DNA from: a bacterium
GTDB taxonomy: Bacteria > Zhuqueibacterota > Zhuqueibacteria > Oceanimicrobiales > Oceanimicrobiaceae
Direction: 5' to 3'
Assembly (NCBI GenBank): GCA_037446635.1
Contig: JBBIIG010000026.1
Span: 1 to 57,437 of the forward strand
Length of the DNA stretch: 57,437 nucleotides
Shown: positions 10,351 through 30,231 of the stretch, piece by piece
Position numbering within the stretch: position 1 is the first letter of the stretch
Layout: the number at the start of each line of letters is the position of its first letter
Made by a program: the position numbers and the translations under genes
The notes under the pieces: model-generated
Told to the model about the DNA's origin: nothing
Databases searched by the model: none
Seen by the model: only the letters and a program-made list of their open reading frames with translations

Positions 10351-10408
10351 AGGTTCTTGCTTGTTTCCAAGCTCTTTTGTAGCGAGTGTGAAAATTAAAA
10401 TCCGATGT

Positions 10409-11512
10409 CTAAAGTTTTATCGCTTGTTCCGTTTCCACATCAAAAAAATGCGCCTTTGCCATGTCAAACACCAGGTTGATTTTTTGATCCTCGTTCGGCT
10501 GGGTTTGCGTGCCCACCCGCGCCACCAGCGGATGCACGCCGGTAGTGACGTAAAGAAACGTCTCGTTGCCCATCGGCTCCATTACCTCCACCAGCAAAGC
10601 GGCTTCGGCGCGATCCTTCAAAGTGGGCGCGACCGCGGCGTCGTAAATATCCTCCGGGCGGATGCCGAAGGTGATCTCGCGATCAAGATATTTCTCCAGC
10701 ACCCTGCCATAGTCTGCCGGCAGCTTGAGCTTCAAACTGCCATCGCTGAACACCAGGCCGTTTTCACGAAAGATTTTTCCGTTCATAAAGTTCATCGCTG
10801 GGCTGCCAATGAAGCCGGCCACAAATTTGTTTTGCGGATGATTGTACAAATTGAGCGGCGTGTCGATTTGCATCACCAGTCCGTCTTTCATCACCACGAT
10901 GCGATCGCCCATGGTCATCGCTTCCACCTGATCGTGGGTGACATAAATCATGGTGGTTTGCAGCCGGCGGTGGAGCTTGGAAATCTCTGTGCGCATCTGC
11001 ACCCGCAGTTTGGCGTCGAGATTGGAGAGCGGCTCATCGAACAAAAACACTCGCGGGTTGCGCACAATGGCGCGGCCCACGGCCACGCGCTGACGCTGGC
11101 CGCCGGAGAGCGCCTTGGGTTTGCGATCCAACATGCTGGTGATGCCGAGGATATCCGCGGCTTCGTATACGCGTTTTTTGATTTCTGCTTTTGAAAACTT
11201 CCGCAGCTTGAGGCCGAAGGCCATGTTGTCAAAAACCGACATGTGGGGGTAGAGCGCATAGTTTTGAAACACCATCGCGATGTCGCGATCTTTCGGCGGC
11301 ACGTCATTCACCAGTTTGTCATCGATGTACAGCTCGCCTTTGGTGATTTCCTCGAGGCCGGCGATCATGCGCAAAGTAGTGGACTTCCCGCAGCCAGAGG
11401 GCCCCACTAACACCACAAATTCCTTATCCGCCACGTCGATGGTGACGTTGTTCACCACCACGTGATTTTTTTCATAAATTTTGCTGATGTCTTTGAGCAT
11501 TACGCGTGCCAT
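10409..11512 (-). CDS. malK: Sugar ABC transporter ATP-binding subunit (MalK/MsmX/UgpC family)
   Basis: [41 protein letters not shown]-terminal TOBE region. Confidence 0.9.
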
Positions 11513-13511: not shown

Positions 13512-15431
13512 TTACTTGATCTGATCTAACTGCCGTTTCAAATCCGCGGCATCCGGAAAATTGGGCGTAATCTCAAACAGCTTTTTTAGGGATTCTTTGG
13601 CCTGATCATATTGCCGATTCAAAGCGTAAGCGCCGCTGAGATTATACAAAAGTTGTGGATCCCGCGGCGACATGTTCGCGGCTTTTTCCAGATACGGCAG
13701 CGCTTCTTTGACGCGGCCGTTGTTCAGATAAATCGTCCCCAGCCATTTGTTAGCATACGCACTCTCTTCCAACTCCAAAGATTTCTGCAAATACGGAAAC
13801 GCGCGGCCGAAATCCTGCAATTTAATGAGCATCTGCGCCGCCCGCAGATAGGGCGATACGTTGAAGGGCGTAATGTATGTCAACGAACGATATTCCGCAA
13901 ACGCCTTTTCAAATTGGCCGCGCTTCTCAAAATATTCGGCAAGCGCAACATGGGCGCGTTCAAGGTTGGTGGTTTTATCCAACCAGACGTTTACTGCCAG
14001 CGATTCGGCTTTGGTTGTGGGACGATAATCGATGAGCGCGCGGTTGGGCAGCGATTTCGGTTGGAACGGCCAGTTGCCTTTCAAAATGCGAATGCGGATG
14101 TCGGCGTAGGCCGAATCCAGCTCGGTGAAGCCCCAGTTTTCGCGATAGTATATTTCCGGTCGGATGCGGCTCGCCTCCCAATTTGCGGCGATGAAGCCAT
14201 GTTGGCGCATGGTTTCAAAAAAAGCATCGGCCATCAAAAAATAGCCATCGATATTGGGATGGAGATGCTCGAGCATCAAGTTGTTGCCGATGAGACCGTG
14301 CGGCGACGCCTTTTCAAAATAGGATTTCATTGGCACGACCGGCGCGTTGAAGGCCGCGGCGACGCGGTGGATGATGTCGTTGAAATCTTCCGCGGCGCGA
14401 AACCGCAGGCCGTCGAGATCTTTGGCGCGGTAATATTCGGTTTTTGCGGCTTCGAAAGCGCCAGCTTTTTCCATTTGCTGTGCCCGGCGGAACACGCTCT
14501 CGGCGTCCGGAAAGGAATCGTGAGTAACTGAAACGAAGGGTTTCAGATCGCGCACGTTGCTCACTACTTCGCTGAGTATCACCGGCACGCCGGCGGCGCT
14601 GGCCTTTTTTAAGATGTCGCGCAGATTGCTTTCGAATTGGCGCTGGCCCAGTCTATAAAGCGGGCTGCCATACGTGATAGTCTGCTCGCCGACCATGCGT
14701 TCCATCAACGTGGCGGAGGGATCGTTGACGGTGCCTTTAGAAAGCAAACGCTCGAGCCCGTTTTTGAATTGGCCGATGGCGTTGCGCACTAGCAAAAACG
14801 TTTTGAAGCGTTGCAGCTTCAAATAGAGTTTGACGAAAGCCGGAATTCTGCCCAGCGATTCGTTGGAGGCGGCGCCGAGCGCGCCATAGAATTCGTTGTG
14901 CCCGGCGTAGATGAGAATGGCGTCGGGTTTTTGCGCTAAAATTTCATCCATGAAATCGAGCAGGGTGTAAGAATTGATCGCCGTCATCGCTGTGTTCACC
15001 ACCTCGAGGTGGCGCTCTGGAAAAACGTCGGCGAGGCGGCGGTGCAGAATGCGCGGGAACATGACGTTGTTGGCATAGGGATAGCCGTCCGCGGTGGAGC
15101 CGCCCATCACGAAAATGCGGTAGCCGTTTTCCGGCTTGATTTTAAGAAACAGATCGTTGGGGGGATCGGGGACGGTGTTCTGCATGAAAAAGTAGCGGCG
15201 TCCCACCTGAGGGTTGCACATGTAGTAAGCGGAATAATCTTTGGGAGCGGAGATAAAAAGATCGAGGTTGCCGGCGTAGTTAAAGATTTGTAATCCAATT
15301 TCGAGCAGCAAGAAGAAGCTCACCGACAGAGCCAGCGCGATGACGCGATAGAGCTTTTCGCGTCTGGCGCTGATAAGCGGCTCAATACGGGTCTTTGGTT
15401 TTTTGGACTTTCGTTTTGTGGAGCTCGCCAT
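13512..15431 (-). CDS. Membrane-anchored SGNH/GDSL-like hydrolase with C-terminal TPR repeats
   Basis: N-terminal TM; GGSTADG; YAGHNEFYG; EHLHPN; TPR-like helices. Confidence 0.75.
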   Translation of the reverse strand: MASSTKRKSKKPKTRIEPLISARREKLYRVIALALSVSFFLLLEIGLQIFNYAGNLDLFISAPKDYSAYYMCNPQVGRRYFFMQNTVPDPPNDLFLKIKPENGYRIFVMGGSTADGYPYANNVMFPRILHRRLADVFPERHLEVVNTAMTAINSYTLLDFMDEILAQKPDAILIYAGHNEFYGALGAASNESLGRIPAFVKLYLKLQRFKTFLLVRNAIGQFKNGLERLLSKGTVNDPSATLMERMVGEQTITYGSPLYRLGQRQFESNLRDILKKASAAGVPVILSEVVSNVRDLKPFVSVTHDSFPDAESVFRRAQQMEKAGAFEAAKTEYYRAKDLDGLRFRAAEDFNDIIHRVAAAFNAPVVPMKSYFEKASPHGLIGNNLMLEHLHPNIDGYFLMADAFFETMRQHGFIAANWEASRIRPEIYYRENWGFTELDSAYADIRIRILKGNWPFQPKSLPNRALIDYRPTTKAESLAVNVWLDKTTNLERAHVALAEYFEKRGQFEKAFAEYRSLTYITPFNVSPYLRAAQMLIKLQDFGRAFPYLQKSLELEESAYANKWLGTIYLNNGRVKEALPYLEKAANMSPRDPQLLYNLSGAYALNRQYDQAKESLKKLFEITPNFPDAADLKRQLDQIK

Positions 15432-15449
15432 TTTTGATACATATTAACC

Positions 15450-15615
15450 GGGGCTGTCCAAAATGGTACTGTCATTGCCTGCCTGCTACAGGCAGGCGAG
15501 CGAAGCGAAGCAATCTCCTGATTTTGTGCGCAAATTATGGGATTGCCTGCCTGCGCAGGCAGGCTTCGTCGCTAACGCTCCTCGCAACGACAATTCTTAC
15601 TTTTTGGACAGCCCC
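15450..15615. mobile_element. Three-level nested MITE/REP-like element
   Basis: Outer IR GGGGCTGTCCAAAA/TTTTGGACAGCCCC; inner GTCATTG..CGAGCGAAGCGAAGCAATC element; two CCTGCCTG..CAGGCAGG mini-palindromes at 15478-15496 and 15546-15563. Confidence 0.75.
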
Positions 15616-15721
15616 AGGGGTTGTGTTCAGCAAAAAGGGCATGGGCCTGACGCCCACGCCCTTTCAAATTTTTTCTTCGGAGTGAAACGCTTAAACGTTT
15701 CACTCCGAGAGATAACAACGA

Positions 15722-17890
15722 TTACCGCACCAGCGTCATCTTGCGAATCTGCTTGAAAAAGCCGGTTGACATCTTCACAAAATAGATGCCGGAGGAAACG
15801 ATCTCGCCGCGATTGTTGTCGCCGTTCCACACTACGGTGTAGGTACCCTGCTTCATCTTTTGATCCACCAACGTCCGCACCCGTTGCCCCATAATGTTGA
15901 AGACTTCGACTTTGACATCGGCGTCTTGGGCGACGTGGTAGCGGATGGTGGTCTGCGGGTTGAACGGGTTGGGATAGTTCTGATCCAAAGCAAAGCTGAA
16001 GGGCAGCACCTCTCCGTCTTCCACGCTGGTGGGCGTGGTGAGATCCGGTGGCGTTTCGAATGGTAGATTGTCCTCGACCCAGTCAAGCGTAGGCAGGTTG
16101 AATTCCGAGGGCCAGGTAGTGGTGAGATCCAGAGCGATGTTTGTTGGCTGGACGAATTGATAATATCTCCGTCCAGCTTCGAAACCGCCGCCATTGGTGA
16201 TAATGGTGCCCGTGGTTGTGCCATAGCCGACGACAAACTCAATTTGATAGGGCGCCGGTCCGGTGGTGGTCATGCTGCCGGAATAAACCATGTCTCCGTC
16301 TTCGTCTTCCAACAGCACCATGTTAGCGTTGAAGGTCGGAAATCCTTGCGACAGCGCAAACAACGAGCCATCGGGTCGAATCCACACCGAGTCGGTAGCG
16401 GGGTTGAAAAGCGGAATGTTGGTGTTGCTGGCCGGATCGGTCGCCGGAACCATGTTGATATTCCAGGTGATGGTGATGGGATCGGGGATGACGCCGTTGC
16501 CCGGAATGCTGTTGAAGAAGTTGCGATTAAAGCCAAAATCTCCGGGAACGGCCTGCTCGGGATCACTGGTGTAAATATATCTGCGGTTGCCGCCGCCGGT
16601 CACTGCCGGTTCTTCCCAGCCGCTGTCTTCATTCTCGTGAATACCGGTATCGTTGATACCACGAATGAAGATATTCGGGATAAAATTCGGGCTGTTGGGA
16701 TCGACGCGCGAGGCATCCCAGCGCACGAAGTATTTGAATTCAATCGGCTCGCCGGGGAATTTCCGGAACGGCTCGGTGACGGTCCATTCATTTAGAAGCG
16801 GGTTGAAATTCATGTGGATAAAGTCATCCGGCAGCCCGACTTCGACGTCGAAGCCATTAGGGCCGATCACGTTGATCTGGTCGCCGAGAGCGCTGTCAAA
16901 CAACTCCAGTTGCTCCAGCGCTTCGGTGCTCACCCGGAAGGTTACAGTGGCATCGACGAGGACGCCTTGAACCGGGGCAGTATTATTAAAATAGACCCAG
17001 TGCAGTGTGGTATCGCCGCTTACGTTCACCAGGTTGGCAGTATAAGTAAAAATGCGGTTGCCATCCGGATCATTCGGATTGACGCGGCCTTCCCACTGGT
17101 CTCCGGTAGCGCCAGCCACCATGAAAAATTTGTAAGCTTGGTCGCTGCCAACATCGACGCTGTCTTTGGGTATAAAAGCATACCCGGACCAGAATGGATC
17201 GCCTTTGACGCCATTTACTTCTCTGGTTAAGATCACATTGGTGGCGCCCCAGTTTAAGACGCCGCCGGAGGTCTGATCGTTGCCGCGAACCCCCACCGAG
17301 CCGATAACCGGATCAAAGGTTTCGTTCTGAATTAAGCCCGCCATGTTGACGCGGAATTGAATGGCAATGGAATCCGGCTTGGCTTCGAAGGGCCGGAAGA
17401 ATTGATCCTTTGTGCTGCCGGTATTGTAATACTGTAACTGCACGGTGGTATCGACATCGCCGGCAATAAACATACGATTATTGTCATTGGCAACGCCATG
17501 AGGATTAATTATGCCAGCTTCCCAGCCGTCCCCAGGGCTGGTCCCAGTTTCGCTGTCAAACCCGGTCCAGATTTTATACGATATGGTATCGCCGGAATTC
17601 ATCTGGAAGGTTAGACTCCAATAATCGCCGCCGTCGTTGGTTAAAATTAAGTCAGAGGCAGCACTCCAGTCGATTGTGTTGCCGCCTGGTAGTTCAGCGG
17701 GTGCGGTTCTCACGGCTCCACCTAACGCGCCACGAATCTGCACAAACCCGTCCGTGTCCAGAGTATCCAAATTCGTGGACGTGTTGACCCGAAAAGTCAC
17801 GTTAATGGTCTGCGCCGAGACCGTCGGCGCCAGTCCAAATGTCAGGAGCAGGGCTCCCAACGTTACGACATGAAAAGCACTTTTGATCAT
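15722..17890 (-). CDS. Secreted protein with ~4 internal beta-sandwich repeats (possibly starch-binding) and T9SS type A/FlgD-like CTD
   Basis: Signal peptide; repeats VTFRVN/IQFRVNM/VTFRVS/ITWNINM; QNYPNPFNPQTTI...SSGIYF...RKMTLVR. Confidence 0.75.
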   Translation of the reverse strand: MIKSAFHVVTLGALLLTFGLAPTVSAQTINVTFRVNTSTNLDTLDTDGFVQIRGALGGAVRTAPAELPGGNTIDWSAASDLILTNDGGDYWSLTFQMNSGDTISYKIWTGFDSETGTSPGDGWEAGIINPHGVANDNNRMFIAGDVDTTVQLQYYNTGSTKDQFFRPFEAKPDSIAIQFRVNMAGLIQNETFDPVIGSVGVRGNDQTSGGVLNWGATNVILTREVNGVKGDPFWSGYAFIPKDSVDVGSDQAYKFFMVAGATGDQWEGRVNPNDPDGNRIFTYTANLVNVSGDTTLHWVYFNNTAPVQGVLVDATVTFRVSTEALEQLELFDSALGDQINVIGPNGFDVEVGLPDDFIHMNFNPLLNEWTVTEPFRKFPGEPIEFKYFVRWDASRVDPNSPNFIPNIFIRGINDTGIHENEDSGWEEPAVTGGGNRRYIYTSDPEQAVPGDFGFNRNFFNSIPGNGVIPDPITITWNINMVPATDPASNTNIPLFNPATDSVWIRPDGSLFALSQGFPTFNANMVLLEDEDGDMVYSGSMTTTGPAPYQIEFVVGYGTTTGTIITNGGGFEAGRRYYQFVQPTNIALDLTTTWPSEFNLPTLDWVEDNLPFETPPDLTTPTSVEDGEVLPFSFALDQNYPNPFNPQTTIRYHVAQDADVKVEVFNIMGQRVRTLVDQKMKQGTYTVVWNGDNNRGEIVSSGIYFVKMSTGFFKQIRKMTLVR

Positions 17891-18002
17891 AACTCCTCCG
17901 TTGTGTTTGGTGGTTAGTTAATCCGGCATTCTCTTTTAAACCAATTTTTCCGACATCACCTCCTTTGTAGCGTTTGAAGATGGTTAGTACGACACTGCTT
18001 TG

Positions 18003-19052
18003 TTAAAACCGCAATTCCAATGAAAAGCGATTGACCGCGTCCAAGTGTTTAAAATCCTGAAATGCGTAGCCTCCGGAAAACTCCACGCCGCTGGTTTTGA
18101 AATTCAAGCCCACTCCTAACGTCAAGCCTTTTTCCCGGTCGTCGAGGAAGAGATCGTTGAAGCCGCCGCGCAAAATCAGGGTTTCACCAAACAGGGCATA
18201 TTCGCCGCCGACGTTCAGGCTCTGGGCGTCATCGTTGGGGTTGAGGCCATCCACGGCAAACGTGAGGCGGTTGCTGCTGGTGGCGAAGGCGTCCCACGAA
18301 AGTCCTACGCGCATGATGAGCGGCGGCTCGTGATCGTCGGTGCGCAAGCGGCCGACGATGCTCTGGTTGTCGCCCTCCTTGCTGGGATCGATATCCACGC
18401 GCACGTTCAGATCGTCGCCGTCGATTTTCAAATTGGTGCCGAAATTGGAGATGCTCACCCCTAAGCGCACCCCGGGGAAGGGGGTATCATAGATCGTTCC
18501 CACGTCGAAAGCCAGGCCGATGGCGCTGGAATTCAAAATCGACTCGTGAATGAATTTAACGTTGCCGCCAATGGAAAAGCGGTCGGTGAGATTGCGGGCA
18601 TAGGTGACGCCTACCGCCAGGCTGCGCGCCGAAAAGGTTTCGCCGGTGCCATCGGGCTGTTCCACGGTCGTGATATCCATGTCGTCGGTGCCCAAAGTGG
18701 TCACGTTGAAGCCCACGCTGCCGGCGCTTTCAAAGGGCAGCACCACGCCAAAGTAATTGAAGGTCAAACCTGGCAGCCAGGGGGTGTGATCCACAAACAC
18801 CGCCTTTTTTTCGAGGCGCGCAATGCCGCTGGGATTCCAGAACATGGCGGTGGCGTCATCGGCGATGGAGACGAAGGCGCTGCCCATGGCCGCGCCGCGC
18901 GTTCCCACCGGAATGCGCAGAAAGATGGCGGCAGACGTTCCCACCTTTTTAACATCCTGCGCCGCCAGCTCGAGGTTAACGGCGCCTAGAGCAAACGCTG
19001 CGATCATCAAAAATAATATAATGCGATTTGATTTCATGGCTTGGTTCTCCAT
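18003..19052 (-). CDS. PorV/PorQ-family (UPF0164) outer-membrane beta-barrel
   Basis: GTSAAIFLRIPVGTRGAAMG; DATAMFWNPSG; AFDVGTIY; terminal Phe. Confidence 0.85.
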   Translation of the reverse strand: MENQAMKSNRIILFLMIAAFALGAVNLELAAQDVKKVGTSAAIFLRIPVGTRGAAMGSAFVSIADDATAMFWNPSGIARLEKKAVFVDHTPWLPGLTFNYFGVVLPFESAGSVGFNVTTLGTDDMDITTVEQPDGTGETFSARSLAVGVTYARNLTDRFSIGGNVKFIHESILNSSAIGLAFDVGTIYDTPFPGVRLGVSISNFGTNLKIDGDDLNVRVDIDPSKEGDNQSIVGRLRTDDHEPPLIMRVGLSWDAFATSSNRLTFAVDGLNPNDDAQSLNVGGEYALFGETLILRGGFNDLFLDDREKGLTLGVGLNFKTSGVEFSGGYAFQDFKHLDAVNRFSLELRF

Positions 19053-19071
19053 TCATCTCAGGTTACCCAAA

Positions 19072-22000
19072 TTATTTGATAATGGCAAAGGTGCCGGTTT
19101 TCTGGCCAATGCCGGGGGCGTCGAGGTGATAGACGTAAATGCCGTAAGCAATTTCGAGGTTGTCTTTGCTCAGCATGTCCCAGATGGCCTCGCCGTTATC
19201 CAATTCAGAATCGTGCTCGATGGTGTCGATCAACACGCCGCTGACGTTGAAGATGCGAATGGTGCATTTGCGCGGCAGGTGAATGAAGTGCAGCTCGCGC
19301 GGGCCACGGCCGCTGGCAAAGGGATTGCGCGGTTCCCAATTGGCGGCCGCGATATAGGGATTAGGCACCACTCTTATGCGATTCAATTGCTGGCGCGCCA
19401 ACTCCGCGGATTCGCCCTCGCCCCTGATGGTAAAACGGTAAACATCGCTGGAGAGGAAAGGCTTGCGTAGAATCACGGTGAGGGTGTCGCCCACGTCGGG
19501 GTTGCGGTTTTCCCGGGGAACGTTCCGCAAAATGAGCTGCCAGGTCCAAACCAACCTGCCGAACCGGTCCGGTTCCAAAAACAAGATGGCGTCCGTCAGG
19601 TTGGAGTTGGTGGGATGCGTGGTAAATTTGCCGTCGTTGCCGTGGATTTCGGCAAACGCAAACGTCACCGGCTCCTTGGTGTTAAAATTGATGACTTTAA
19701 AATTCACGTCTTTGGCGGGCAACGGCACAGCGGTGGTACCGGAACGAATGGTGGTATCTTTTGAGGTGGCGGTTCCCACCTCTCCGAAAATGATCTGATA
19801 GTCGTTGGGGCGCTGTTCGCCATTCAAAAGCAGGAATTGCACCGGGCTGAACTGAAAATTATAGATACCGCTGTTATTCCAACGAGAAGCTTGCGTATTG
19901 AGTTGTACGCGTTCCTCATTAACAAAGAATAATCGAAAGCCATCGATCAGCGGAGATTCTTCGCCCTGGTTGAAGATGCGACTTCTGAACAATTTCACCT
20001 CGTTGGCGGTGCGGTCGGTGAGGGTGAAATTTTTAGTGGTGAGAATATCGCCGGTGATCCTTCGAATCAACGTGTCCTGAAACGTGATCTCGTATTGATG
20101 GCCATCGTTAACAATCCGCGGATCGACGATGGTAAAGCCGATCTGGCCGCTGGAGGTGCCTTCGAGGTGGGTCAATTCCGTGACTCCCGCCGGCAGGTAG
20201 CCGGCCACTGGCGCTCTCGGCCTCACTACCGCCACATTGGGTCCGGTGCGAATGTTGCCTTCCGGATCGACATCGACGTTGATGGGCGTTTCGGTGGGGG
20301 AGATTTCGCCGGCGGCGAAACCGAAATCGTACGCGGTGACCGCATAGAAATAACGCTGGCCATTCACCAGCCCAGTGTCGGTGTAGGTATGCACGAGTCC
20401 GCTGTCGTCGCCCAAATTAAACAGAACACCGTTGATATCAACGGGATGCAGGCCGGTGATGCCATCCTCTTTGTCGAACTGTGCAATGGGCCGCAGCAAG
20501 GTGGGCACGCCCTCAGCGTCGGTGATCACTTTGGCGTCGAGGAAGGCGGCGTCGGTGGCGCGGTAAATGCGGTAGCCTTCGAAATCCTGAAACGGCCCGT
20601 TCAACCGCTTGATAAAACGGTCTTCGGAAAACTCGGCGGCGTCATCCCAATAGAGGGTCACTTGGCGATCGCCAGGCACAGCGGTAACGGTGACTTGAAT
20701 GGGCGCCTGCGCAAACTGGTAGTCGGTTTCGAATGCCGTAGTCGCCTGGCGCTGCTTGCGGATAGCGCTTTCGATATCAGCTTGTTTGGTGATGCCGCCG
20801 CCGGCCATGGCCACCGAAACCGCCATGCGCTGGCGTTGGCCGGGTTCGATGGGAAAATAGCCGGATGAGACATAGCCGTCGTATTCGCCGGTAGGTCTGG
20901 GCAAAAAGAAGCGGCCGGGGGTCATGAAGTTACGCCAGATGGTGGCGTCGGCGATGGTGCTGAAATTGATGGCGCCCGCCGGATCTTGAACCGCGGAAGT
21001 TATGCCAATCAAATCAGTCTCACTGACGTCGGTTTTATCAATATTGGGCTCGCCGGGAAAATTGGTGCCGGAGCCGCTGGTGGGCAAACCGTCGCCTTCG
21101 CCGGGGTCGCCGGTGTTAGCTACCCCGTCTAATCCCACGTCATCTTGCAGCGGGTTCCAGTCGTTGTCATTATCAAAGCGATCGTCGCGCGATTCGTCAA
21201 TCATGGGCGCGATGGTTTGGAGGGATGGCACCGCCGCTTTGCCGGAAACGAGAAATCCACGTTTGATGGTGTCGCCCACTGCAAACGAAAGATAATTGAT
21301 GTAACGAACCGGCCGCCGGTCGCCGGTGATTTCGTTGAATCTAAACAAGTGCAGCGTCGCACGTTCATCGATCAAGCCGTCCAAATCTTCATCCTGCGAA
21401 TTTGCTAATGTATCCTCTGCAACCGCCAGACCGCCGGGGGGCAGTTGAATTTGCCGGCCCAGCGTCACTACCGTTCCGCCGCCCTGCGGATATCCTACCA
21501 CTCGTCTTTCAAAAGTCAATGAGTCGATCACTACAATTTTATCGCCAGGAACGAGAGTTCGGGTCTCAAAATCATTGTTAGTGAAGAAAGGGATCACAAC
21601 GTTGGGGTCGCCGCTGATTTGTGAAATGAGCGGCGCGACCGCCGGGTTGATGGCCGGATCGGCGTCGCCGTCGTTATCGATGCCGTCCACAGCGTTGCCC
21701 GGGGTTTCGAGAAATTTGATGGAAGCTAAGCCCACCGGGTCGGAGCCGAAATTCTCGTCGCCGATGCGATCGGCGTCCGTCAAGAAGGCGATGCTGGACT
21801 GTAAGTCCACGAACGGCTGATCGTCCTGGGCGTCGCCGCCAACGATGTCGGCCAGCCAGATCAGGAACGAGGCTTTGGGGATGCGTTTGGTGCCGTCATT
21901 GAGTATATCGTGGATAAAGAAAATGACGTCGCTAATCAAAACCTGCGACCACGCGAAGGCCCGCACGTCCATCAGCAAGCCGAGGCCGCGGCGCGTGGGG

Positions 22001-22716
22001 TCGGTGGCGTCGGGAATATAATTGAAGCGATCATAGCGGTCATCCGAGGTTCTGTAAAACATTTCCTGGTCGGCGTTGAAAACGTGTTTTCCGAAGAAAC
22101 CGTTCCATGAACCGACCCACCCCGGATCAACCGGGTCTTCGCGCTTATCGCGCCAGCCGCCCTGCGCCGCGGTGGGCCAGGAATTGGGGTTGTCGCTGCG
22201 TGCAATGGAGTTGGCGTCGGGATTGAGAAAGCCCGGCACCGGCTCCAAATTCCAACTTCTGCCGTCCGGACTTTGCCGAAAGGTGGGTAAATCTAAGACC
22301 TGAATGGTGCGTCCAGTCTCGTCCACCACCTCGCCGGCTTTCCAAATGGCCACCAGCGCGACGTAAATGCGGTTGGTGTTTTTCGGCCATTCATAAGGAA
22401 TTTCATCCGGACGGGCGGTGGTGCGGCCGCTAAACCCGAAGTTGAACACCGTGGCGCGCACGTTGTTGCCGTCGATGTTGGATTTACGCCGGAAGTTGGG
22501 GTCGCCGCGGTTGTCCGACGGCACGTGTTCGTTCACCTGCGCGAAGGCTTCGCCGAAAACTATCATCAGCACTATTATTATAAGCAAACGTGAGACGTGA
22601 AAAGTGCGACGTGAAAGGGCAAACGGCAGACGGCAGACGGCAGACGATTTTCGTTTTTCGATTTCCGATGAGCCGGAAAGCTGATAGCTTGCCGCCTTAA
22701 TTGATTGAGTGCTCAT
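19072..22716 (-). CDS. Large secreted protein with Ca-binding-like DxDxDG motifs, an FN3-like segment and a T9SS-like CTD
   Basis: DGIDNDGD, DEDLDGLIDE, DDVGLDG; PGDRQVTLYWD..FEGYRIYR..NGQRYFYAVTAYD; IRVVPNPY..TIRIFNVSG..IAYGIYVY..FAIIK. Confidence 0.75.
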   Translation of the reverse strand: MSTQSIKAASYQLSGSSEIEKRKSSAVCRLPFALSRRTFHVSRLLIIIVLMIVFGEAFAQVNEHVPSDNRGDPNFRRKSNIDGNNVRATVFNFGFSGRTTARPDEIPYEWPKNTNRIYVALVAIWKAGEVVDETGRTIQVLDLPTFRQSPDGRSWNLEPVPGFLNPDANSIARSDNPNSWPTAAQGGWRDKREDPVDPGWVGSWNGFFGKHVFNADQEMFYRTSDDRYDRFNYIPDATDPTRRGLGLLMDVRAFAWSQVLISDVIFFIHDILNDGTKRIPKASFLIWLADIVGGDAQDDQPFVDLQSSIAFLTDADRIGDENFGSDPVGLASIKFLETPGNAVDGIDNDGDADPAINPAVAPLISQISGDPNVVIPFFTNNDFETRTLVPGDKIVVIDSLTFERRVVGYPQGGGTVVTLGRQIQLPPGGLAVAEDTLANSQDEDLDGLIDERATLHLFRFNEITGDRRPVRYINYLSFAVGDTIKRGFLVSGKAAVPSLQTIAPMIDESRDDRFDNDNDWNPLQDDVGLDGVANTGDPGEGDGLPTSGSGTNFPGEPNIDKTDVSETDLIGITSAVQDPAGAINFSTIADATIWRNFMTPGRFFLPRPTGEYDGYVSSGYFPIEPGQRQRMAVSVAMAGGGITKQADIESAIRKQRQATTAFETDYQFAQAPIQVTVTAVPGDRQVTLYWDDAAEFSEDRFIKRLNGPFQDFEGYRIYRATDAAFLDAKVITDAEGVPTLLRPIAQFDKEDGITGLHPVDINGVLFNLGDDSGLVHTYTDTGLVNGQRYFYAVTAYDFGFAAGEISPTETPINVDVDPEGNIRTGPNVAVVRPRAPVAGYLPAGVTELTHLEGTSSGQIGFTIVDPRIVNDGHQYEITFQDTLIRRITGDILTTKNFTLTDRTANEVKLFRSRIFNQGEESPLIDGFRLFFVNEERVQLNTQASRWNNSGIYNFQFSPVQFLLLNGEQRPNDYQIIFGEVGTATSKDTTIRSGTTAVPLPAKDVNFKVINFNTKEPVTFAFAEIHGNDGKFTTHPTNSNLTDAILFLEPDRFGRLVWTWQLILRNVPRENRNPDVGDTLTVILRKPFLSSDVYRFTIRGEGESAELARQQLNRIRVVPNPYIAAANWEPRNPFASGRGPRELHFIHLPRKCTIRIFNVSGVLIDTIEHDSELDNGEAIWDMLSKDNLEIAYGIYVYHLDAPGIGQKTGTFAIIK

Positions 22717-22742
22717 AATTTTTCCTTAAGTTTGGAACGTAT

Positions 22743-25529
22743 TTAAAATCCAAAGCTGGCGCCCACCTGAATGCGGCGCGGCTCGGAGAAGAAATCCGGA
22801 CGTACGAAAAATGTTTGGTCGGCCTGCAGCGAGCGCGAGTTGAAGGTGAAATCCGCCTCGCCGGTGTCGCCGAAAACATTAACGGGGTTTTTGGCGTCAA
22901 AGATGTTGAACAATTTTGCAAACAGTTTCACCCGGTAAGAACTAAAGTTGAAATTTTTAAACGCGGTAAAATCCAGGGTGAATCGGTTGGGCTTGCGCCG
23001 GCTGTTTTTTTCAAGGCCGAAGGTGATGTCCTGCCCAGTGCGACCAAACTGAATGATCTCCGGCGTGTAGGGTTGCCCGGAGTTAAACCGCTCGATTAGG
23101 CTTACCCCCCAATCGTTGCCGCCCACGAACAAGGTGGCGTTGAGCGCATGGGCTTGATCCCAGTCCAGCGGCGTGAGCTGTTTGGTAGGCTCGTTACCGT
23201 CGCGTTGCGCAAAAAACTCTTCATCAGGGCTGGAGTTGGTGCCCTCCGCGATTTGGAAGGTGTAATCGAGGTCGAAGGAATAATAATTGGAAAGACGCTT
23301 GCTAACCGCCAGGGTTATGCCAAACACATTGGCAAAATCACGATTGATGCGGCGGCCGTAGGAGACGCCGGCGATGGCCGCGTCGATGGGCTGGCTGGTG
23401 GAAATCCAGTCGCGAATGTCGCGGTAATACATAGTGAGATCGGCGCCGATGTTGTCGGAAAGCTGCTGCTGCAAGCCGATTTCATACATAGTGGTGCGCT
23501 GCGGGTTGAGGTCCGGGTTGCCGAAACCGTTGCCGGTTTTGCCGCCCTGCAGGCCGGAAGCCTGGGTTAATTTCAATTCGTCGCCGCGGTAGAGCTGCTC
23601 GTAATCCGGCGTCTGACGAAAGATGCCGTACGAGAAGTGAATGACGCCGCGCTCGGTGATGGGATAGGCCACTCCCAGCCGCGGGCTGAGCTGAGTTTTG
23701 ATGCTGGTCGTGCGGTACCAGTATTGTTCGCGGTCGGCCACGGTTAACCGATTGTCTTCGCGCTGCTCATCCAGGCTGATTTGGCCGTCGCCGTTGGTGT
23801 CGCGGAAAATGTTGATGAGCTTGAACGGCGAATAAATGTTGGGGTCGCTTAAATCCACCGGTACGCGGCCGTTGGGGTCGAACATATCAAAACGTAAGCC
23901 CACGTTGATTACCAGGCTTTCGTATTCGATTTTGTCTTGAAGGTAGGCCGCAAAAGTGAAGGGCTTGCGGATAATCAGGTCATGAGATTCCTCGGTGGCG
24001 GGCCGAATCTCCGGCGTGAACGGCTGTAATTGCTGGCCATTTTCATCCACGGCCGGCACCAGCCGGGCGTCTTCCATAAAAACCCGGTCCCATTTCAACT
24101 CGACGCCGGTTTTCACTTGATGACGCTTGGAAATCTGGCTGGTGAGGTCAAACTTGCCAATCCAGCTCTTGGTGTTGCGCGCGAAGCGTTCCACGTCCGT
24201 CCCGGCTCTGATGAATTGATTGGAGCCGCGGTTGGTGGAATCGGGATGCACGTAGCGCGGATCGAAGGGATCGTCGAAAAGCTGGGATTTCAACTCGTTG
24301 TACTTGTACGAGCCGGTCAATTCGTAAAAGGTTCGGCTGCTGAGCGCGTGGGTGAGGTTAGCGATGACCGCGCCGCCCTTTTCGTCATCGCCGCGATCGC
24401 CCAGCGGGTTGAGCTTCCAGTCGTGGCTGTAGGTGCCCCGTTCCTCCGTGCTGCCCAGCGCATCTATTTTGAACTTGATGGGCGCTGAAATACGCCATTC
24501 AAGGCTGCCCTGCCCACTCCAGCGCCGGGTAAAATTCAACGGCACGGCGCTGCTGTCGCCTAAATTCGGGACGAACGTGGTGTCGCCGTCCACCACCTCG
24601 ATGCGGTTGCGTCCGGAGGGCTGAAAGGCCAGAGGGCCGTAAAGCCAACCGTCGTTGTTCCAGCGCCGCCCGGTGACAAAAAACGTCACTCTGTTTTTTA
24701 TAATCGGACCGCTCAGCGAACCCTGAAGGTTGTAATTGCCGGTGGCGCTGAGATCGTCAATATTAAAAAATACATTGTCGCGGCTGCTCAGATAATCGCC
24801 GGTCCAGGCTTCAAAATTTCCGTGAAATTGGTTGCCGCCGGTTTTGGTGACGATGTTGATGACGCCGCTGAGGGCTTCGCCATATTCGGCGTTGAAAGTG
24901 CCGCTGATCACCTGCAGCTCCTGAATGGATTCGTTTTCCACCTGGAGGGACTGGGTGCGGGAGAAATCATCGGTGATGCGGATGCCGTTCACCATATAGG
25001 CCACTTCCGTGGCGCGCCCGCCGCGAATATGAAGGCCGCCGTCCGAGCCGCGGCTGATGCCGGCTTGCAGGTTGAGCAAATCGCCCAATTCCTGCACCGG
25101 CAGGCGGCGAATTTCCTCTGCCTGCACCCGCGCTTCGGCTGAGGTCAAATCTTTGCGGACGATGGGCCGCTCTGCGGTGACCACCACCTCCTGGCCCAGT
25201 TCCACCGCCTCCGAGCGCATCTTGAAATCAATAGTGGTGGTGAGGTCGGTGAGCACCTGCACTCCCTGTGTGATGACCGGGCGATAACCGATGAAGTCGC
25301 AGCGCAGCTCGTAGGTGCCCGGCGGCACCCGCAGAATGAGATAGTTGCCATCGAGGTCGGTGGCCGCGCCCATGGTGGTGCCGGTGATGATCACGTTGGC
25401 GCCGGGCAGGGGTTCGCCGGTGTCCGAGTCTGTGACGACGCCGGTGATTTTGCCGAATTTCTGCGCCGTCACTGGAGCGCACAAAACCAAAACCAGCAAC
25501 GCAACCATACACAGTTTGATCTGGTTCAT
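22743..25529 (-). CDS. TonB-dependent receptor with N-terminal CarboxypepD_reg-like domain (not SusC type)
   Basis: GKITGVVTD..GEPLPGANV; HIRGGR plug; GTFNAEYG; LSPRLGVAYP; PRRIQVGASFGF. Confidence 0.9.
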   Translation of the reverse strand: MNQIKLCMVALLVLVLCAPVTAQKFGKITGVVTDSDTGEPLPGANVIITGTTMGAATDLDGNYLILRVPPGTYELRCDFIGYRPVITQGVQVLTDLTTTIDFKMRSEAVELGQEVVVTAERPIVRKDLTSAEARVQAEEIRRLPVQELGDLLNLQAGISRGSDGGLHIRGGRATEVAYMVNGIRITDDFSRTQSLQVENESIQELQVISGTFNAEYGEALSGVINIVTKTGGNQFHGNFEAWTGDYLSSRDNVFFNIDDLSATGNYNLQGSLSGPIIKNRVTFFVTGRRWNNDGWLYGPLAFQPSGRNRIEVVDGDTTFVPNLGDSSAVPLNFTRRWSGQGSLEWRISAPIKFKIDALGSTEERGTYSHDWKLNPLGDRGDDEKGGAVIANLTHALSSRTFYELTGSYKYNELKSQLFDDPFDPRYVHPDSTNRGSNQFIRAGTDVERFARNTKSWIGKFDLTSQISKRHQVKTGVELKWDRVFMEDARLVPAVDENGQQLQPFTPEIRPATEESHDLIIRKPFTFAAYLQDKIEYESLVINVGLRFDMFDPNGRVPVDLSDPNIYSPFKLINIFRDTNGDGQISLDEQREDNRLTVADREQYWYRTTSIKTQLSPRLGVAYPITERGVIHFSYGIFRQTPDYEQLYRGDELKLTQASGLQGGKTGNGFGNPDLNPQRTTMYEIGLQQQLSDNIGADLTMYYRDIRDWISTSQPIDAAIAGVSYGRRINRDFANVFGITLAVSKRLSNYYSFDLDYTFQIAEGTNSSPDEEFFAQRDGNEPTKQLTPLDWDQAHALNATLFVGGNDWGVSLIERFNSGQPYTPEIIQFGRTGQDITFGLEKNSRRKPNRFTLDFTAFKNFNFSSYRVKLFAKLFNIFDAKNPVNVFGDTGEADFTFNSRSLQADQTFFVRPDFFSEPRRIQVGASFGF

Positions 25530-25539
25530 ATTTTCTCCA

Positions 25540-27240
25540 TCAGTTAGTTTTCAAATTGAGATCCAGCAACTTGTCAGCCCAAACCTTCAGCTCAGTGGCT
25601 TCACGAAATTCCTCGATCTTTGCGCGGCGGAAGTCCCCCCACAAAATGTAGCGCACGGCCTCTTCCACCTCGGGCCGCGCCTCTTCAAACGCGCGCGGAC
25701 GCGGCGGTTTTTTGTCGATACACTCTAAAAACACGTACATCGAATCCATTTGGAGGGGGCCAGTGCGTTCGCCAATTTCCAGCGCGAATATTTGCGGTGA
25801 CCACGGGCCAATTTCCTCCGGCGTCAGCCAGCCCAACTCGCCGCCGCGTTCGCTGCTCCAGCGGCGCACCGAATGGTTGCGGGCGAGTTCCGCAAACGGC
25901 GCGCCCTGCTTGAGTTTTCGGGCGACGAGATCGGCGTCCTTCTTTTCGCGCAAAACAATTTCCCGCAAGTTGATCTGCGCCGGCGCGGCAAAGCGCTGCG
26001 CTTCGCGGCTGAAATAACTGCGCAGCGAATCTTCCGGAACCATCATTTCATTTCTCAGGGTGTCTTCCATTCGCCTCAGAAGATAGCCGTCCCAGCTTTC
26101 CGCCACCTTTTGCCGGTAATCCGTTTTTTTGTGGAGCTTATCTTTTTTCGCTAACTGGAGAATGCGTTCCCGCACCACCAGCCCGGCAATGAATTCTTTA
26201 AATTGCGATTCGTTTTTAATCCATTTGTGCTGCCGCGGCGAAGTGAATTGCGCTTTCTTTTGGAACGTCGCGACCTCCCATTTGCCTATTTTGGAACGAA
26301 CCAGTTCCTGGCCGCTCAAGTCTGCAATTTTAATGCGGGCTACATCGCTTTCCTCCAACTGTTGATCCGGCTGCTGCGATTGAAACGCCGCAAACAATTC
26401 TTTCACCACGGGCTCATTGAATTGAATGTCAAGTGTGCGATTCAAGGAGTCCACAAAAGCAACCGTGGCTTTTTGCAGCTTGCGCTCGCGCCAGTAGCGC
26501 TCCAGTTTATCTTTGTGTTTGGCGTATTCGAATTCGGTAATTAACGGTTTGGTAACGCGGTCATCGACGCGGATGATGCTGTAGCCGTCGGTGGTGGCCA
26601 CCGGCCGGGAGATTTCACCAACTTTCAGATCGAAAGCGGCTTCTTCGAATGCCGGCTCCATTTCATCGACAGTGAAGTAGCCTAACGAACCGCCAGAGTC
26701 ACGCAAGTGCGGGTCGCGAAAAATGACTTCGGCCAATTCTTCAAAGCTGGCGCCGGCTGCGAGGGCGTGGTAAAGGGAGTCAGCGCGTTCTTTGTTGGGC
26801 GCATATAAATGGCGCGCTTTGATGCGGGTGTTGAGCCGAATGTACAACTCCTGCAGCTCACGGTCGCTGACGGTGATTTTGTCCGCAATCATTTTTTTGT
26901 TGAAGGCGTTCAGCAATTCCTGAATCTCGAGGCGCTGGCGTTCGTGCCGGGCGGGTTCGTCTTTATCGAGGCCGCGGCGTTCGGCTTCGGTGATGAGCAC
27001 TTCTTCATCAACGTATTGATTCAAAATCTGGCGGCGGGCCTCGTAGGTGTCGAAGACGCCTTCGCCGGTGCGGAGGCGAAAGTCTTGATAACGCTTGATG
27101 AATTCACCCTGGTCGATAGTTCGGTTGCCGATGACCGCCAGCGTGGGCTGATTGCGTTCGGGCGTGAAATAAAAAACGTAACCGATCAGTCCGATGAGAA
27201 AAAGACTGATTATGATTAGAACGGACTTTCTAATCGACAT
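25540..27240 (-). CDS. Membrane-anchored peptidyl-prolyl isomerase with two parvulin (PpiC) domains
   Basis: IKARHL..FEELA..GGSLGYF..MEPAFEEAAF; FAELARNHS..GGELGW. Confidence 0.85.
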   Translation of the reverse strand: MSIRKSVLIIISLFLIGLIGYVFYFTPERNQPTLAVIGNRTIDQGEFIKRYQDFRLRTGEGVFDTYEARRQILNQYVDEEVLITEAERRGLDKDEPARHERQRLEIQELLNAFNKKMIADKITVSDRELQELYIRLNTRIKARHLYAPNKERADSLYHALAAGASFEELAEVIFRDPHLRDSGGSLGYFTVDEMEPAFEEAAFDLKVGEISRPVATTDGYSIIRVDDRVTKPLITEFEYAKHKDKLERYWRERKLQKATVAFVDSLNRTLDIQFNEPVVKELFAAFQSQQPDQQLEESDVARIKIADLSGQELVRSKIGKWEVATFQKKAQFTSPRQHKWIKNESQFKEFIAGLVVRERILQLAKKDKLHKKTDYRQKVAESWDGYLLRRMEDTLRNEMMVPEDSLRSYFSREAQRFAAPAQINLREIVLREKKDADLVARKLKQGAPFAELARNHSVRRWSSERGGELGWLTPEEIGPWSPQIFALEIGERTGPLQMDSMYVFLECIDKKPPRPRAFEEARPEVEEAVRYILWGDFRRAKIEEFREATELKVWADKLLDLNLKTN

Positions 27241-27279: not shown

Positions 27280-29124
27280 TCAATTTAGAATCAGGCCTGT
27301 TTTTCCGGGAATTTCCAGTACTAAGTTCTGTCCGTCGCTTTGAAAAGTCTGTTGAGTTAGTAAATCATTATAACCTGATTTTGAGCCCATTTTATTCGTC
27401 GCCAAAGTGATGGGTTGGGCACTGCTGGAGTTGTTGACGACGACCGTTAAAATTTCGGAATCATTGAAGCGTTTGAAAACGAAAACGTCTTTGGCGTTAT
27501 CAGTGAGCAGCGTTGCGATTTTACCGGTTTGCAGGGCCGGATGCGCTTTGCGGATCGCAATGAGCGTCTTGTAGTGATTGAACAAATCCGGATTAAAACG
27601 ATTTTCATCAGACGGCCGCGGTTTGTTCAGAGGATGCGCGGCTTCATTATCATAAGTCAAATCTGCCCACAGCATTGGTTTGCGGCAGTCGGGATCGTCG
27701 GCGCCCCACATGCCGGCCTCGTCGCCGTAATAAATCGTGGGCGCGCCAATGTAGGTCATGTGGAAGATTGCGATGAGTTTCTGAATGGCGATTTCGTCGG
27801 CGTTGGGTTTGCGGACGTCGTAGTCGGGATTGTCGCGCGGCGAGTCGCGGTGATCATAGACATCGTCGTAATTGATGATTTGCGAGGCAAGGCGGTCGGT
27901 GTCGTGACTGTTCAGCACGTTGAGCAGGCCGTAGTTCACCGGCTCGCGGTAATCGTTCCGCAACTGCAGCAGCCGGCGGTCGAATTCGGAAGGGGAGATT
28001 TTGTTTTTCTTATCCACAAAAAAGTGCATGATTTCGGCGGCGAGGCGATAATTCATCACGGCGTCGAAGACGTCGCCTTCCAACCACGGACGGGCGTTGA
28101 ACATTTGATTGTTATTCCAATCTTCCCACCAGACTTCGCCCACTAAATAGGCTTCGGGATTGATGTTTCGGACGTGCGTTCGGAACTGCCGCCAAAACGC
28201 CGAGCTCACTTTTTCCGCCACGTCGAGCCGCCAGCCGTCGATACCATCCGAGGGGTCGCCGTCGTTGTTGGGGTCCATCCACCGTTTCACGGCCTGAAAA
28301 ACATAATCCCGCGCTTCCGGGACGAGGCCGTTTTTATCTTCGCGAATTTCCGGCAGCTCTTTGACGCCCATCCAGCCCTCGTAATCGAATTCGTTTTCCG
28401 GGGTGGCGGGATCATCCCAGCTTGTGATGGTGAACCAGTTGGCGTAGCGAGAGTTCTGTTGCTGAGCCGCCACGTCGCGAAAGGCCCAGAAATTCAACCC
28501 CACGTGGTTGAACACGCCGTCAATGACGACGCGGAGGTTGCGGCGATGGCATTCGGCTATTAATTTCAGAAAGAGAGAATCGGCGGTGGTCCATTTCCAG
28601 GTGTCGGACTGATCGGGAATTTCGCTGGCGATGATGCTGCGGTCGCGGTCGGGGTCAGGGCCAAAATTGTCGTCGATGTGATGGAACGTCGCCCCGTCAT
28701 ATTTGTGCAGCGAAGGCGACTCGAATAGCGGATTGAAATAGATGGCGGTGATGCCCAGATCTTGCAAGTAGTCTAATTTATCGAGCACGCCCTGCAGGTC
28801 GCCGCCGTAGCGCCGGCGCTGAACGTGGTAGTAAAAATCTTTTTGTGAACTTTCCCACGATTGCAGTGCGTACCAATCGCCGGTCCACGAAGAGACCTGG
28901 TAGGGCAGCGCAGTGTCGTGCGGCCACGAGCCGATGATATCTTGCAGTTGCGGATCGTTGCCGGGGTCGCCGTTGCGGAAACGCTCCGGAAAAATTTGGT
29001 ACCAGACTGCCTGCTGCGCCCAGACCGGAACCTCCTCCAGAGGCGTGATCGGCTTTTGCGTGGATTGACAGCCCAAGAGCAGATACCAAACTATCCAAAC
29101 CGAAATTGTTTTTGAAATTTTCAT
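27280..29124 (-). CDS. GH13 alpha-amylase-family glycosidase, lipoprotein; paralog of 11616-13406
   Basis: Lipobox LLGC; YQIFPERF; DGVFNH; DGWRLDVA; GEVW; NSHDTDR. Confidence 0.9.
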   Translation of the reverse strand: MKISKTISVWIVWYLLLGCQSTQKPITPLEEVPVWAQQAVWYQIFPERFRNGDPGNDPQLQDIIGSWPHDTALPYQVSSWTGDWYALQSWESSQKDFYYHVQRRRYGGDLQGVLDKLDYLQDLGITAIYFNPLFESPSLHKYDGATFHHIDDNFGPDPDRDRSIIASEIPDQSDTWKWTTADSLFLKLIAECHRRNLRVVIDGVFNHVGLNFWAFRDVAAQQQNSRYANWFTITSWDDPATPENEFDYEGWMGVKELPEIREDKNGLVPEARDYVFQAVKRWMDPNNDGDPSDGIDGWRLDVAEKVSSAFWRQFRTHVRNINPEAYLVGEVWWEDWNNNQMFNARPWLEGDVFDAVMNYRLAAEIMHFFVDKKNKISPSEFDRRLLQLRNDYREPVNYGLLNVLNSHDTDRLASQIINYDDVYDHRDSPRDNPDYDVRKPNADEIAIQKLIAIFHMTYIGAPTIYYGDEAGMWGADDPDCRKPMLWADLTYDNEAAHPLNKPRPSDENRFNPDLFNHYKTLIAIRKAHPALQTGKIATLLTDNAKDVFVFKRFNDSEILTVVVNNSSSAQPITLATNKMGSKSGYNDLLTQQTFQSDGQNLVLEIPGKTGLILN

Positions 29125-30217: not shown

Positions 30218-30231
30218 TGGAAGTGCTTCCA
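30218..30231. promoter_or_regulatory. Putative LacI-family operator
   Basis: Near-palindrome TGGAAGTGCTTCCA just downstream of the promoter. Confidence 0.7.

Follow-up and report, generated by a model that had tools for sequence, protein, structure and literature searches.

A conserved three-gene outer-membrane module in a bacterial starch locus: a predicted secreted protein with a PorZ-like tail as candidate capture partner of a TonB-dependent transporter

In the polysaccharide utilisation loci (PULs) built on SusC/SusD (RagA/RagB), a TonB-dependent transporter (TBDT) with an N-terminal extension is followed by the gene of a dedicated partner, and that partner, SusD, is a well-known capture protein. 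Many paralogues of the pair occur per genome beside substrate-specific carbohydrate-active enzymes (CAZymes), a regulator and an inner-membrane transporter, with some copies lacking CAZymes, and SusE/SusF add a non-catalytic starch-binding protein at the surface. Another kind of surface complex belongs to the secretion system of type IX (T9SS), about which published work reports that the C-terminal domains (CTDs) of PorZ and PorU are not removed (PMC11285876), that CTDs, at the SprA translocon, attach to PorV through its extracellular loops (PMC10994853), and that type B cargo remain on cognate barrels, in the pairs PorP-PG1035 and SprF-SprB (PMC9143113, PMC12618676). Here we examine a 57,437-nt stretch of DNA from a bacterium of the phylum Zhuqueibacterota (contig JBBIIG010000026.1; the window, in what follows), which carries three adjacent genes for a TBDT, a 1214-residue predicted secreted protein and a PorV-family barrel, together called the triad. 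An initial annotation had proposed that the 1214-residue protein, held by the barrel, takes the place of SusD. We find the triad widely conserved and consider it probable, if some way from certain, that this protein is exported by the T9SS, is held on the barrel and serves as capture partner or lid of the TBDT, in direct contact with it.

Open reading frame (ORF) calling places all six genes of the proposed module on the minus strand at the sizes first noted, co-oriented and closely spaced, with gaps of 10, 26 and 19 nt between the genes for a peptidyl-prolyl isomerase (PPIase) and the TBDT, the TBDT and the 1214-residue protein, and the latter and the barrel. Along the minus strand the order is lacI, GH13, PPIase, TBDT, 1214-residue protein, barrel, a 722-residue T9SS cargo, an SGNH hydrolase with TPR (SGNH-TPR), a second GH13, malK, malE, an ORF6N-domain gene, malF and malG. 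The described setting between GH13 genes, lacI and malEFGK is borne out by Pfam and NCBIfam scans of the flanks, both GH13 genes keep intact catalytic motifs, and we are confident that this is a starch/maltodextrin locus. None of the 25 window proteins scanned against Pfam matches a SusD family, in agreement with the initial annotation; the only PF07980 match of the genome sits on another contig, and a search of the genome with PF14322 gave no match.

The TBDT contains PF13715, PF07715 and PF25183, the last of which we take to be an Oar-like barrel model, and its plug matches solved TBDTs. Against the SusC model TIGR04056 it reaches 95.3 bits where 368.25 are needed, with the N-terminal part only and no adjacent susD, so its designation as a non-SusC receptor stands. 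The system differs from SusC/SusD in a TBDT below the SusC cut-off, in a partner that lacks a lipoprotein signal and consists almost wholly of beta structure (supersandwich, Fn3 and CTD) rather than being a helical TPR protein, in the third gene, for a PorV-family barrel, that accompanies the pair, and in a presumed starch binder that is a T9SS cargo with CBM20-fold domains.

To assess how constant this arrangement is, we collected 80 related loci from GTDB genomes titled KSB1, Calditrichota, Ignavibacteria, Balneola, Marinisomatota and a few 'Bacteroidota', 47 of them at least 20 kb long; the order counts omit two loci in which no partner ORF was called. The TBDT gene lies directly upstream of the partner gene in 71 of the 73 loci with flank, and ORF calling puts the barrel gene directly downstream of it in 60 of 64, with tblastn finding two of the four misses directly downstream and the other two within 5 kb. 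The survey suggested with the initial annotation accordingly finds the triad kept across KSB1, Calditrichota, Ignavibacteria, Balneola and Marinisomatota. Among the neighbours, the PPIase occurs in 65 of the 80 loci (46 of the 47 long ones), the cargo cluster in 61 (45), GH13 in 40 (33 of 47), LacI in 32 (26) and SGNH-TPR in 26 (17), while a sodium symporter is present in 9, GH31 in 6, MalE in 3, MalF and MalK in 2 each and MalG in 1. From these counts we take the subfamily to be a starch system and the ABC transporter to be local to this locus, and because SGNH-TPR, PPIase and MalE/F/G/K do not occur throughout we limit the core to three genes. MalEFGK (relatives in only 1-3 of the 80 orthologous loci), SGNH-TPR (26) and the PPIase (65, and three of the six copies in this genome) are accessory and not parts of the module.

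The same linkage extends to paralogues. Three other KSB1 genomes yielded 50 matches to a profile of the partner's C-terminal tail, made from a 13-row alignment (see below), of which 48 were counted, one scoring as a generic tail and one a 100-residue frame that was not recovered. A TBDT gene lies within 6 kb of 46 of the 48 tail-bearing genes (38 within 300 nt) and a barrel gene within 8 kb of 45 (40 within 300 nt), the two genes without a TBDT being the weakest and the longest of the 48. Over 45 triads, distances correlate between TBDT barrel and partner N-terminal domain (0.70), TBDT and PorV-family barrel (0.75) and tail and barrel (0.55), all at permutation p 0.001; the TBDT and the N-terminal domain have a common nearest neighbour in 28 of 45 cases, and loci for the same substrate are nearest neighbours. 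The three core genes duplicate jointly, which does not imply contact between their products. Five loci (L024, L026, L077, L119 and L132) have two tail-bearing partners, or two barrels, per TBDT. The records L024-L026, titled Chitinophagales/Bacteroidetes, share flanking genes with the Balneola loci, and their titles may mislead.

By sequence the 1214-residue protein matches no Pfam or NCBIfam family at E 0.01, SusD included, and nothing among PDB sequences at E < 0.1; its ESM Atlas matches are unnamed clusters only. There were 1298 relatives among 7994 candidates scored, and none of the 120 relatives listed has a Pfam label. The signal ends in A-F-A followed by Gln, with no lipobox Cys at the mature start, and in 45 paralogues a lipobox pattern occurs in three, only within the hydrophobic stretch. 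Short imperfect 7-nt repeats extend the signal region (22580-22650, minus strand), and similar low-complexity stretches are found at the starts of other genes in this genome. Modeled with AlphaFold2 (pLDDT 84, pTM 0.75), the mature chain runs from a beta-supersandwich, with an Asp-rich insert inside it, through a linker helix, an Fn3 domain and further beta domains to the CTD. The model is dominated by strands, its longest helix having 20 residues, and so lacks the helical TPR fold of SusD. The Asp-rich insert is absent or shorter in paralogues and might, at a guess from known motifs, bind calcium; the short paralogues (~700 residues) retain the N-terminal region, the Fn3-like segment and the tail.

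In fold the model comes closest to dextran dextrinase, glucoamylase and GH94 phosphorylases, matching the N-terminal domain of each (Z 18-19, root mean square deviation (rmsd) ~3 Å over 235-265 residues), namely the supersandwich of galactose mutarotase-like fold that begins GH15, GH65 and GH94 enzymes and is likewise followed by a linker helix. Identity to these is 6-12%, however, and the model has no (alpha/alpha)6 catalytic barrel after the supersandwich, its place being taken by Fn3/Ig domains and the CTD. As modeled, then, the protein is not SusD and has no catalytic barrel of the GH15/65/94 type; a fold of a known SusD or of a glycosidase would have undone the original proposal. Whole-model Foldseek searches with both multi-domain proteins, this one and the 722-residue cargo, returned mostly generic Ig/Fn3 chains, and the absence of a SusD chain among the structure matches listed for the 1214-residue protein by itself excludes nothing. 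Weaker matches to the GH174 endo-fucanase (Z 13.6-14.0) and to aldose 1-epimerases (mutarotases, Z 13.5) raise the alternative of a surface enzyme, an endo-hydrolase or epimerase with a catalytic supersandwich that would act as the SusG-like part, and the many invariant acids and aromatics inside the starch subfamily, together with the lack of a CTD in either GH13 of the locus, would fit it. We nevertheless hold this to be very unlikely, since the best matches are N-terminal sandwich domains with no barrel modeled behind them, and since conservation over the first 300 residues of 45 paralogues is highest at G, P, W and N, with no His or Glu reaching 60% and the best acid at 73%. A single fold is moreover common to the loci for starch, pectin, beta-glucan and GlcNAc and to those not concerned with sugars, and CTD-bearing amylase-like genes exist elsewhere in the genome.

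The CTD-like tail noted at first proves to match the PorZ and PorU CTDs both by sequence and by structure. A tail profile finds PorZ (5M11, E 6.7e-4) and PorU (6ZA2, E 0.013) in the PDB, the WD40 rows of that search being repeat noise; the modeled tail superimposes on PorZ with Z 10.5 and an rmsd of 2.6 Å over 92 residues; and the tail of the PorZ model matches the paralogue on contig C6 (E 3.6e-9). The tail matches neither TIGR04183 or PF18962 nor a profile of the generic tails of this genome, and the protein matches no type B CTD model. The sequences that the profile collects at E 1e-10 form 5222 clusters when grouped at 50% identity; since multi-repeat proteins score too, this number is an upper limit. 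In this genome a barrel gene lies directly downstream of 0 of 102 generic type A cargo genes, as against 5 of the 5 best tail matches. The barrel of the triad belongs to the PorV family as had been supposed, passing NF033709 (199.8 versus 90 bits) and failing the equivalogs NF033710 (PorV, 82.1/250) and NF033711 (PorQ, 95.7/220); it matches no PorP/SprF model in Pfam or NCBIfam, and the genome holds ~20 relatives of it.

The 1214-residue protein is no lipoprotein and has a tail of the PorZ type and a barrel of its own; by analogy with the type B precedents we read it as barrel-held, and its export and its retention on the cognate barrel are very probable. The likeness to the PorZ-PorQ and PorU-PorV attachment complex lies in the CTD type, in sequence and structure, and in the barrel family. 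The bodies of PorZ and PorU, a beta-propeller and a C25 sortase, are unlike that of the 1214-residue protein; the triad tail, linked to TBDTs, has up to 27 matches per genome; and separate PorU and PorZ-like genes lie elsewhere in this genome. With type B cargo and their PorP/SprF shuttles (SprB-SprF, PG1035-PorP) the triad has in common a cargo gene beside its own barrel gene, and the anchoring by staying on the barrel that is established for those cargo would apply here too. In contrast to them, the triad tail is not type B, its barrel is of the PorV/PorQ family and its genomes are without GldM, and the known type B cargo are adhesin-like with no tie to importers. Other genes with atypical tails also adjoin PorV-family barrel genes, without a TBDT, and are candidate cognate cargo-barrel pairs (C14:55456-59161, C25:4310-9559, C25:21522-28909, C2:28004-37647, C42:26227-32282, C62:19749-22133 and C93:1933-3852).

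It could be argued instead that the protein stays in the periplasm, where it would take substrate below the TBDT, and that the tail is merely an Ig-like domain. The Sec-type signal, the failure to match any curated CTD model and the linked periplasmic-type PPIase would agree with this. We find it extremely unlikely, because the tail matches PorZ/PorU CTDs, which are of a kind that binds PorV extracellular loops (PMC10994853), because the barrel gene is almost always next to it, and because 17 of the 18 genomes without SprA in the sample of 81 described below have no tail.

Of the core T9SS genes sought in this genome, which is 97% complete, SprA and PorU are over cut-off and a PorZ-like gene is full-length and just under it (244 of 260), whereas the motor components were not recovered. 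GldM was found neither here nor in a complete relative, by a search that was positive in two control genomes, and GldL and GldN were not found here by searches without a positive control; GldK lay outside the search. The expectation of a T9SS is thus supported for SprA, PorU and the PorZ-like protein and not for GldL, GldM and GldN. The genome has SprA, PorU and ~100 type A cargo genes, yet no GldL/M/N were found.

This phylum was sampled with 61 genomes. Here the tail profile gives 688 matches in 58 genomes (median 11 per genome), some of them PorZ-like (about 1 in 7 in this genome), and SusD (PF07980) gives 37 matches in 23. A second sample comprised 81 genomes of the phylum holding L026. 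In it 37 genomes have at least two tails, SprA being present in 36 of these 37, GldM over cut-off in none, and more than five SusD matches in none. Conversely, at least six SusD matches occur in 14 genomes, of which 13 lack the tail and the remaining one shows a single weak match to it, and tail matches in the 19 GldM-positive genomes number at most one each, and that a weak one; the GldM-positive, SusD-rich group is presumably Bacteroidia. Within the class of the genome holding L026, 87 of 101 genomes were positive for the tail, but this class was not used as a Bacteroidia control because the flanks of L026 equal those of the Balneola loci.

These data bear on a further alternative, which the match of the TBDT to PF25183, presumably Oar-like, would suit. 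In it the TBDT would serve for export or energising and would draw on TonB to carry the 1214-residue protein, on its barrel, out of the cell, in a T9SS without a Gld motor. There is a precedent in Myxococcus Oar, which is required for secretion of PopC (PMC6434023), and the complementary pattern of GldM and tails just described would suit it. However, presence of GldM goes with lineage, export is needed as well by the products of ~100 generic type A cargo genes that have no TBDT partner, and the loci hold periplasmic-type hydrolases, inner-membrane sugar transporters and LacI with no other outer-membrane importer, and we therefore put little weight on an Oar-like role, judging it to be about as improbable as the enzyme.

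The paralogues indicate what such modules might import. This genome has six triad copies, namely the starch locus, those on C1, C3, C6 and C21, and one presumably broken across two contig ends, those of C8 and C2. Neighbours are GH16, two GH3, CBM9 and GH9 for the C8/C2 copy, GH42, GH39 and GH106 for C3, GH20, ROK and CBM9 for C21, and a sugar ABC binding protein with weak GH9-like and CBM4/9 matches for C1. The C6 copy has a GWxTD gene and no CAZyme. Glycoside hydrolases (GHs) stand beside four of the six copies at E 1e-9, compared with none of 16 neighbourhoods of other TBDTs for GH or polysaccharide lyase (PL) (57 proteins of at least 300 residues, several windows ending at contig ends); the single susC/susD pair of the genome has, by inspection, no CAZyme among its neighbours. 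In two of the three other KSB1 genomes, 22 regions were scanned, of which 9 hold GH or PL (for starch, for pectin in two cases, GH2 in three, GH94/GH3 and GH5/GH3), 2 hold sulfatases and 3 a LacI regulator only; the families in these two genomes include GH28/PL, GH43, GH2, GH94/GH3 and GH5. The prediction that CAZyme families vary with the triad is therefore upheld insofar as the families change from copy to copy and is not where copies (8 of the 22) are unlinked, and the module, like SusC/D, is glycan-enriched and not glycan-only. C6-type copies (C6:58909-68182; L113, L100 and L103) lie in a housekeeping neighbourhood conserved between KSB1 families, often with the GWxTD gene and no CAZyme, and their ligand is probably not a glycan.

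Three things make capture partner or lid the most economical role for the barrel-held protein: its near-invariant link to one TBDT family, a joint divergence that follows substrate, and the rarity of SusD. Sugar TBDTs without a lid are known, such as Caulobacter MalA and the Xanthomonas CUT transporters, and the TBDT here may also be lidless, with the barrel-held protein a separate surface binder or adhesin that raises the local substrate concentration. One TBDT of the same family in this genome has no partner genes (C2:140839), and in a few copies the partner gene stands 1-4 kb away from the TBDT or the barrel is missing, as this alternative would allow. A loose binder would be expected, however, to come and go as the CBM20 cargo and SGNH-TPR do, whereas the partner is kept in 46 of 48 cases irrespective of substrate, and the N-terminal core is conserved at least as well as the TBDT barrel (e.g. 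0.69 versus 0.62 and 0.82 versus 0.67 for orthologous copies, well-aligned columns only); on balance we consider a lidless TBDT unlikely. A complex prediction for the orthologous pair of locus L030, combining the TBDT barrel without plug (661 residues) with two supersandwich stretches, trimmed to 1000 residues, scored 0.19 against a mark of 0.32 and is no evidence either way.

Several observations weigh against a capture lid that replaces SusD. Linkage and joint duplication fit any common pathway and not contact alone, and the fold of the supersandwich occurs in enzymes too (GH174 at Z 14, mutarotases at Z 13.5). One of the six copies here and 8 of the 22 elsewhere have no carbohydrate marker. 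With GldL/M/N not found, no Gld motor is seen to energise export through SprA. Triads are present also in genomes with up to five SusD matches, some SusD-like proteins escape PF07980, and the split between SusD and triad follows lineage, so that the genomes are not independent and the pattern is one of lineage. In Rhodothermus marinus a xylan locus (Rmar_1070-1073) is listed as a TBDT gene and then CTD-bearing hypothetical genes, next to a canonical susC/susD (PMC6987092). Since triads coexist with SusD, presumably in that locus too, the capture role does not require strict substitution.

Under the capture model, the 1214-residue protein is predicted to leave the cell through SprA, its PorZ-like tail likely keeps it on the neighbouring barrel, and the supersandwich would be offered to the TBDT as a capture lid in place of SusD. 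Starch would be cut by secreted amylases encoded elsewhere and held at the surface by the type A cargo, whose CBM20 folds suggest such binding; maltodextrins would then pass lid and TBDT, powered by TonB/ExbBD, to be trimmed by the two GH13 enzymes before MalEFGK takes them across the inner membrane, an order that we propose from the gene identities, and LacI would control the starch system. The 722-residue protein, first described as a T9SS cargo, is confirmed as one by TIGR04183 (39.1 versus 23 bits) and by a model tail with Z 10.4 to the PorU CTD, and with its generic tail it would take the common PorV/PorU export route. Its model (pLDDT 92) is a chain of beta-sandwiches with the CTD behind a low-confidence linker; three domains (1-131, 146-282 and 286-433) match CBM20 at Z 9.4-11.2 and the fourth is unmatched. 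Pfam CBM_20 (cut-off 23.3 bits) scores 16.4 in this protein and 46.8 in an orthologue, and neither Pfam/NCBIfam nor the model revealed a catalytic domain. It is likely the counterpart of SusE/SusF, with glycan binding suggested by the modeled fold. Candidates for cutting starch outside the cell are the amylase-like genes with type A tails beyond the locus (C92:1-1841 with C41:33040-33984, probably one gene split, and C4:85082-88717); in 19 orthologous loci a CTD-bearing GH13 lies inside the locus. The PPIase is likely an accessory periplasmic chaperone, and from their sequences both it and SGNH-TPR look anchored in the inner membrane and not like outer-membrane parts. SGNH-TPR, often inverted among the 26 loci that hold it, was considered as a hidden SusD and rejected by its membrane anchor, GDSL match and patchy occurrence.

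In the literature we found no functional study of the triad, supplements and most subscription papers being outside the scope of the search. The figure legend of a report on the R. marinus alginate locus prints the order tonB-hypA-hypB (PMC9530828), which is that of a TBDT (2805 nt), a T9SS-sorting-domain gene (2181 nt, a size that fits the short partners of ~700 residues) and a PorV/PorQ gene (1056 nt) beside characterised lyases; in the accessible text the Rhodothermus genes are listed as hypothetical without comment on function (PMC9530828, PMC6987092). By annotation, order and size they presumably belong to the triad family. The genome report of Caldithrix abyssi describes growth on starch and, in its accessible part, does not use the term SusD (PMC5317091). 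The triad is thus real, widespread and apparently unstudied, previously in print, as far as the accessible sources go, as unremarked Rhodothermus annotation. It would work like SusC/SusD while failing membership of both families, and PUL prediction, which rests on susC/susD, would miss the triad loci of KSB1, Calditrichota, Ignavibacteria, Balneola/Rhodothermus and Marinisomatota, for which the tail profile offers a marker. We give roughly even chances to the broader view that the triad is the standard nutrient-capture machine of several Bacteroidota-related phyla, with a lid that a GldM-less T9SS delivers and that evolved independently of SusD, a distinct kind of uncleaved tail, sequence clusters in the thousands and, in one genome, as many as two dozen copies for different substrates. 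If the lid reading holds, the triad would be a second, unrelated solution to assisted TonB import that ties type IX secretion directly to uptake, with a further class of cognate CTD-barrel pairs and a large uncharacterised family of binding proteins whose ligands could be guessed from neighbouring enzymes, and it could be tested in cultured organisms.

The features of the locus are collected in Table 1. The operator palindrome, one mismatch allowed, occurs in 15 of the 80 orthologous loci, mostly just before lacI, GH13 or PPIase, and in 4 of 48 paralogue regions, of which two are GH13 loci and one is their nearest neighbour. Within the window alone it is not significant, 12 of 100 shuffles reaching four matches, and its support comes from conservation and not from window statistics.

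Table 1. Positions of the features of the starch locus in the window; domains within the 1214-residue protein are as modeled, and residue numbers there refer to the mature chain.
Feature	Position	Strand	Remarks
Sigma-70-type promoter-like site, upstream of lacI	30244..30272	-	11/12 consensus matches; consensus match only
LacI-type palindromic operator, just 3' of promoter	30218..30231	-	Conserved heading orthologous starch loci
LacI-family regulator	29134..30156	-	Pfam LacI + Peripla_BP_3
GH13, neopullulanase/cyclomaltodextrinase-like, lipobox-type signal, no CTD	27280..29124	-
PPIase, 566 aa, SurA/PrsA-like, two parvulin domains, N-terminal hydrophobic anchor	25540..27240	-
Core 1: TBDT, 928 aa, N-terminal extension, plug, PF25183 barrel; not SusC	22743..25529	-
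Core 2: 1214-aa protein, cleavable-type signal to residue 59, no lipobox; undescribed family	19072..22716	-
1214-aa protein, beta-supersandwich, mature ~12-290 + 510-605	20725..22506	-
1214-aa protein, acidic Asp-rich insert between the two parts of the supersandwich	about 21013-21669	-
1214-aa protein, stalk of Fn3-like and further beta-sandwich domains	19423..20709	-	Fn3 Z 9.5-9.7, mature 611-775
1214-aa protein, PorZ/PorU-like CTD, unlike the generic type A tails of the genome	19075..19374	-
Core 3: locus-specific PorV/PorQ-family barrel, 349 aa	18003..19052	-	NF033709 199.8/90; PDB PorV 6H3I E 1.4e-6
T9SS type A cargo, 722 aa, tandem beta-sandwich domains, three CBM20 folds	15722..17890	-
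SGNH hydrolase + TPR, 639 aa, N-terminal membrane anchor; accessory	13512..15431	-
Second GH13, cleavable-type signal, no CTD	11616..13406	-
malK, malE, (ORF6N gene), malF, malG; inner-membrane ABC step, local to this locus	6610..11512	-

Some further elements were seen in and around the operon. The ORF6N-domain gene between malE and malF lies inside the operon at 8429-8974 (minus strand), and between the cargo and SGNH-TPR genes, at 15450-15615, there is an element of ~165 nt resembling a repetitive extragenic palindrome or a miniature inverted-repeat transposable element; its ends are inverted over 14 nt and it has palindromes inside. A tRNA-Met gene (30370-30443, plus strand) and then a 14-bp hairpin (30454-30484) stand a short way upstream of the operon promoter. 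Farther along the window, at 39604-44940 (minus strand), a second TBDT of 947 residues is followed by genes for proteins of 469 and 245 residues without a Pfam match.

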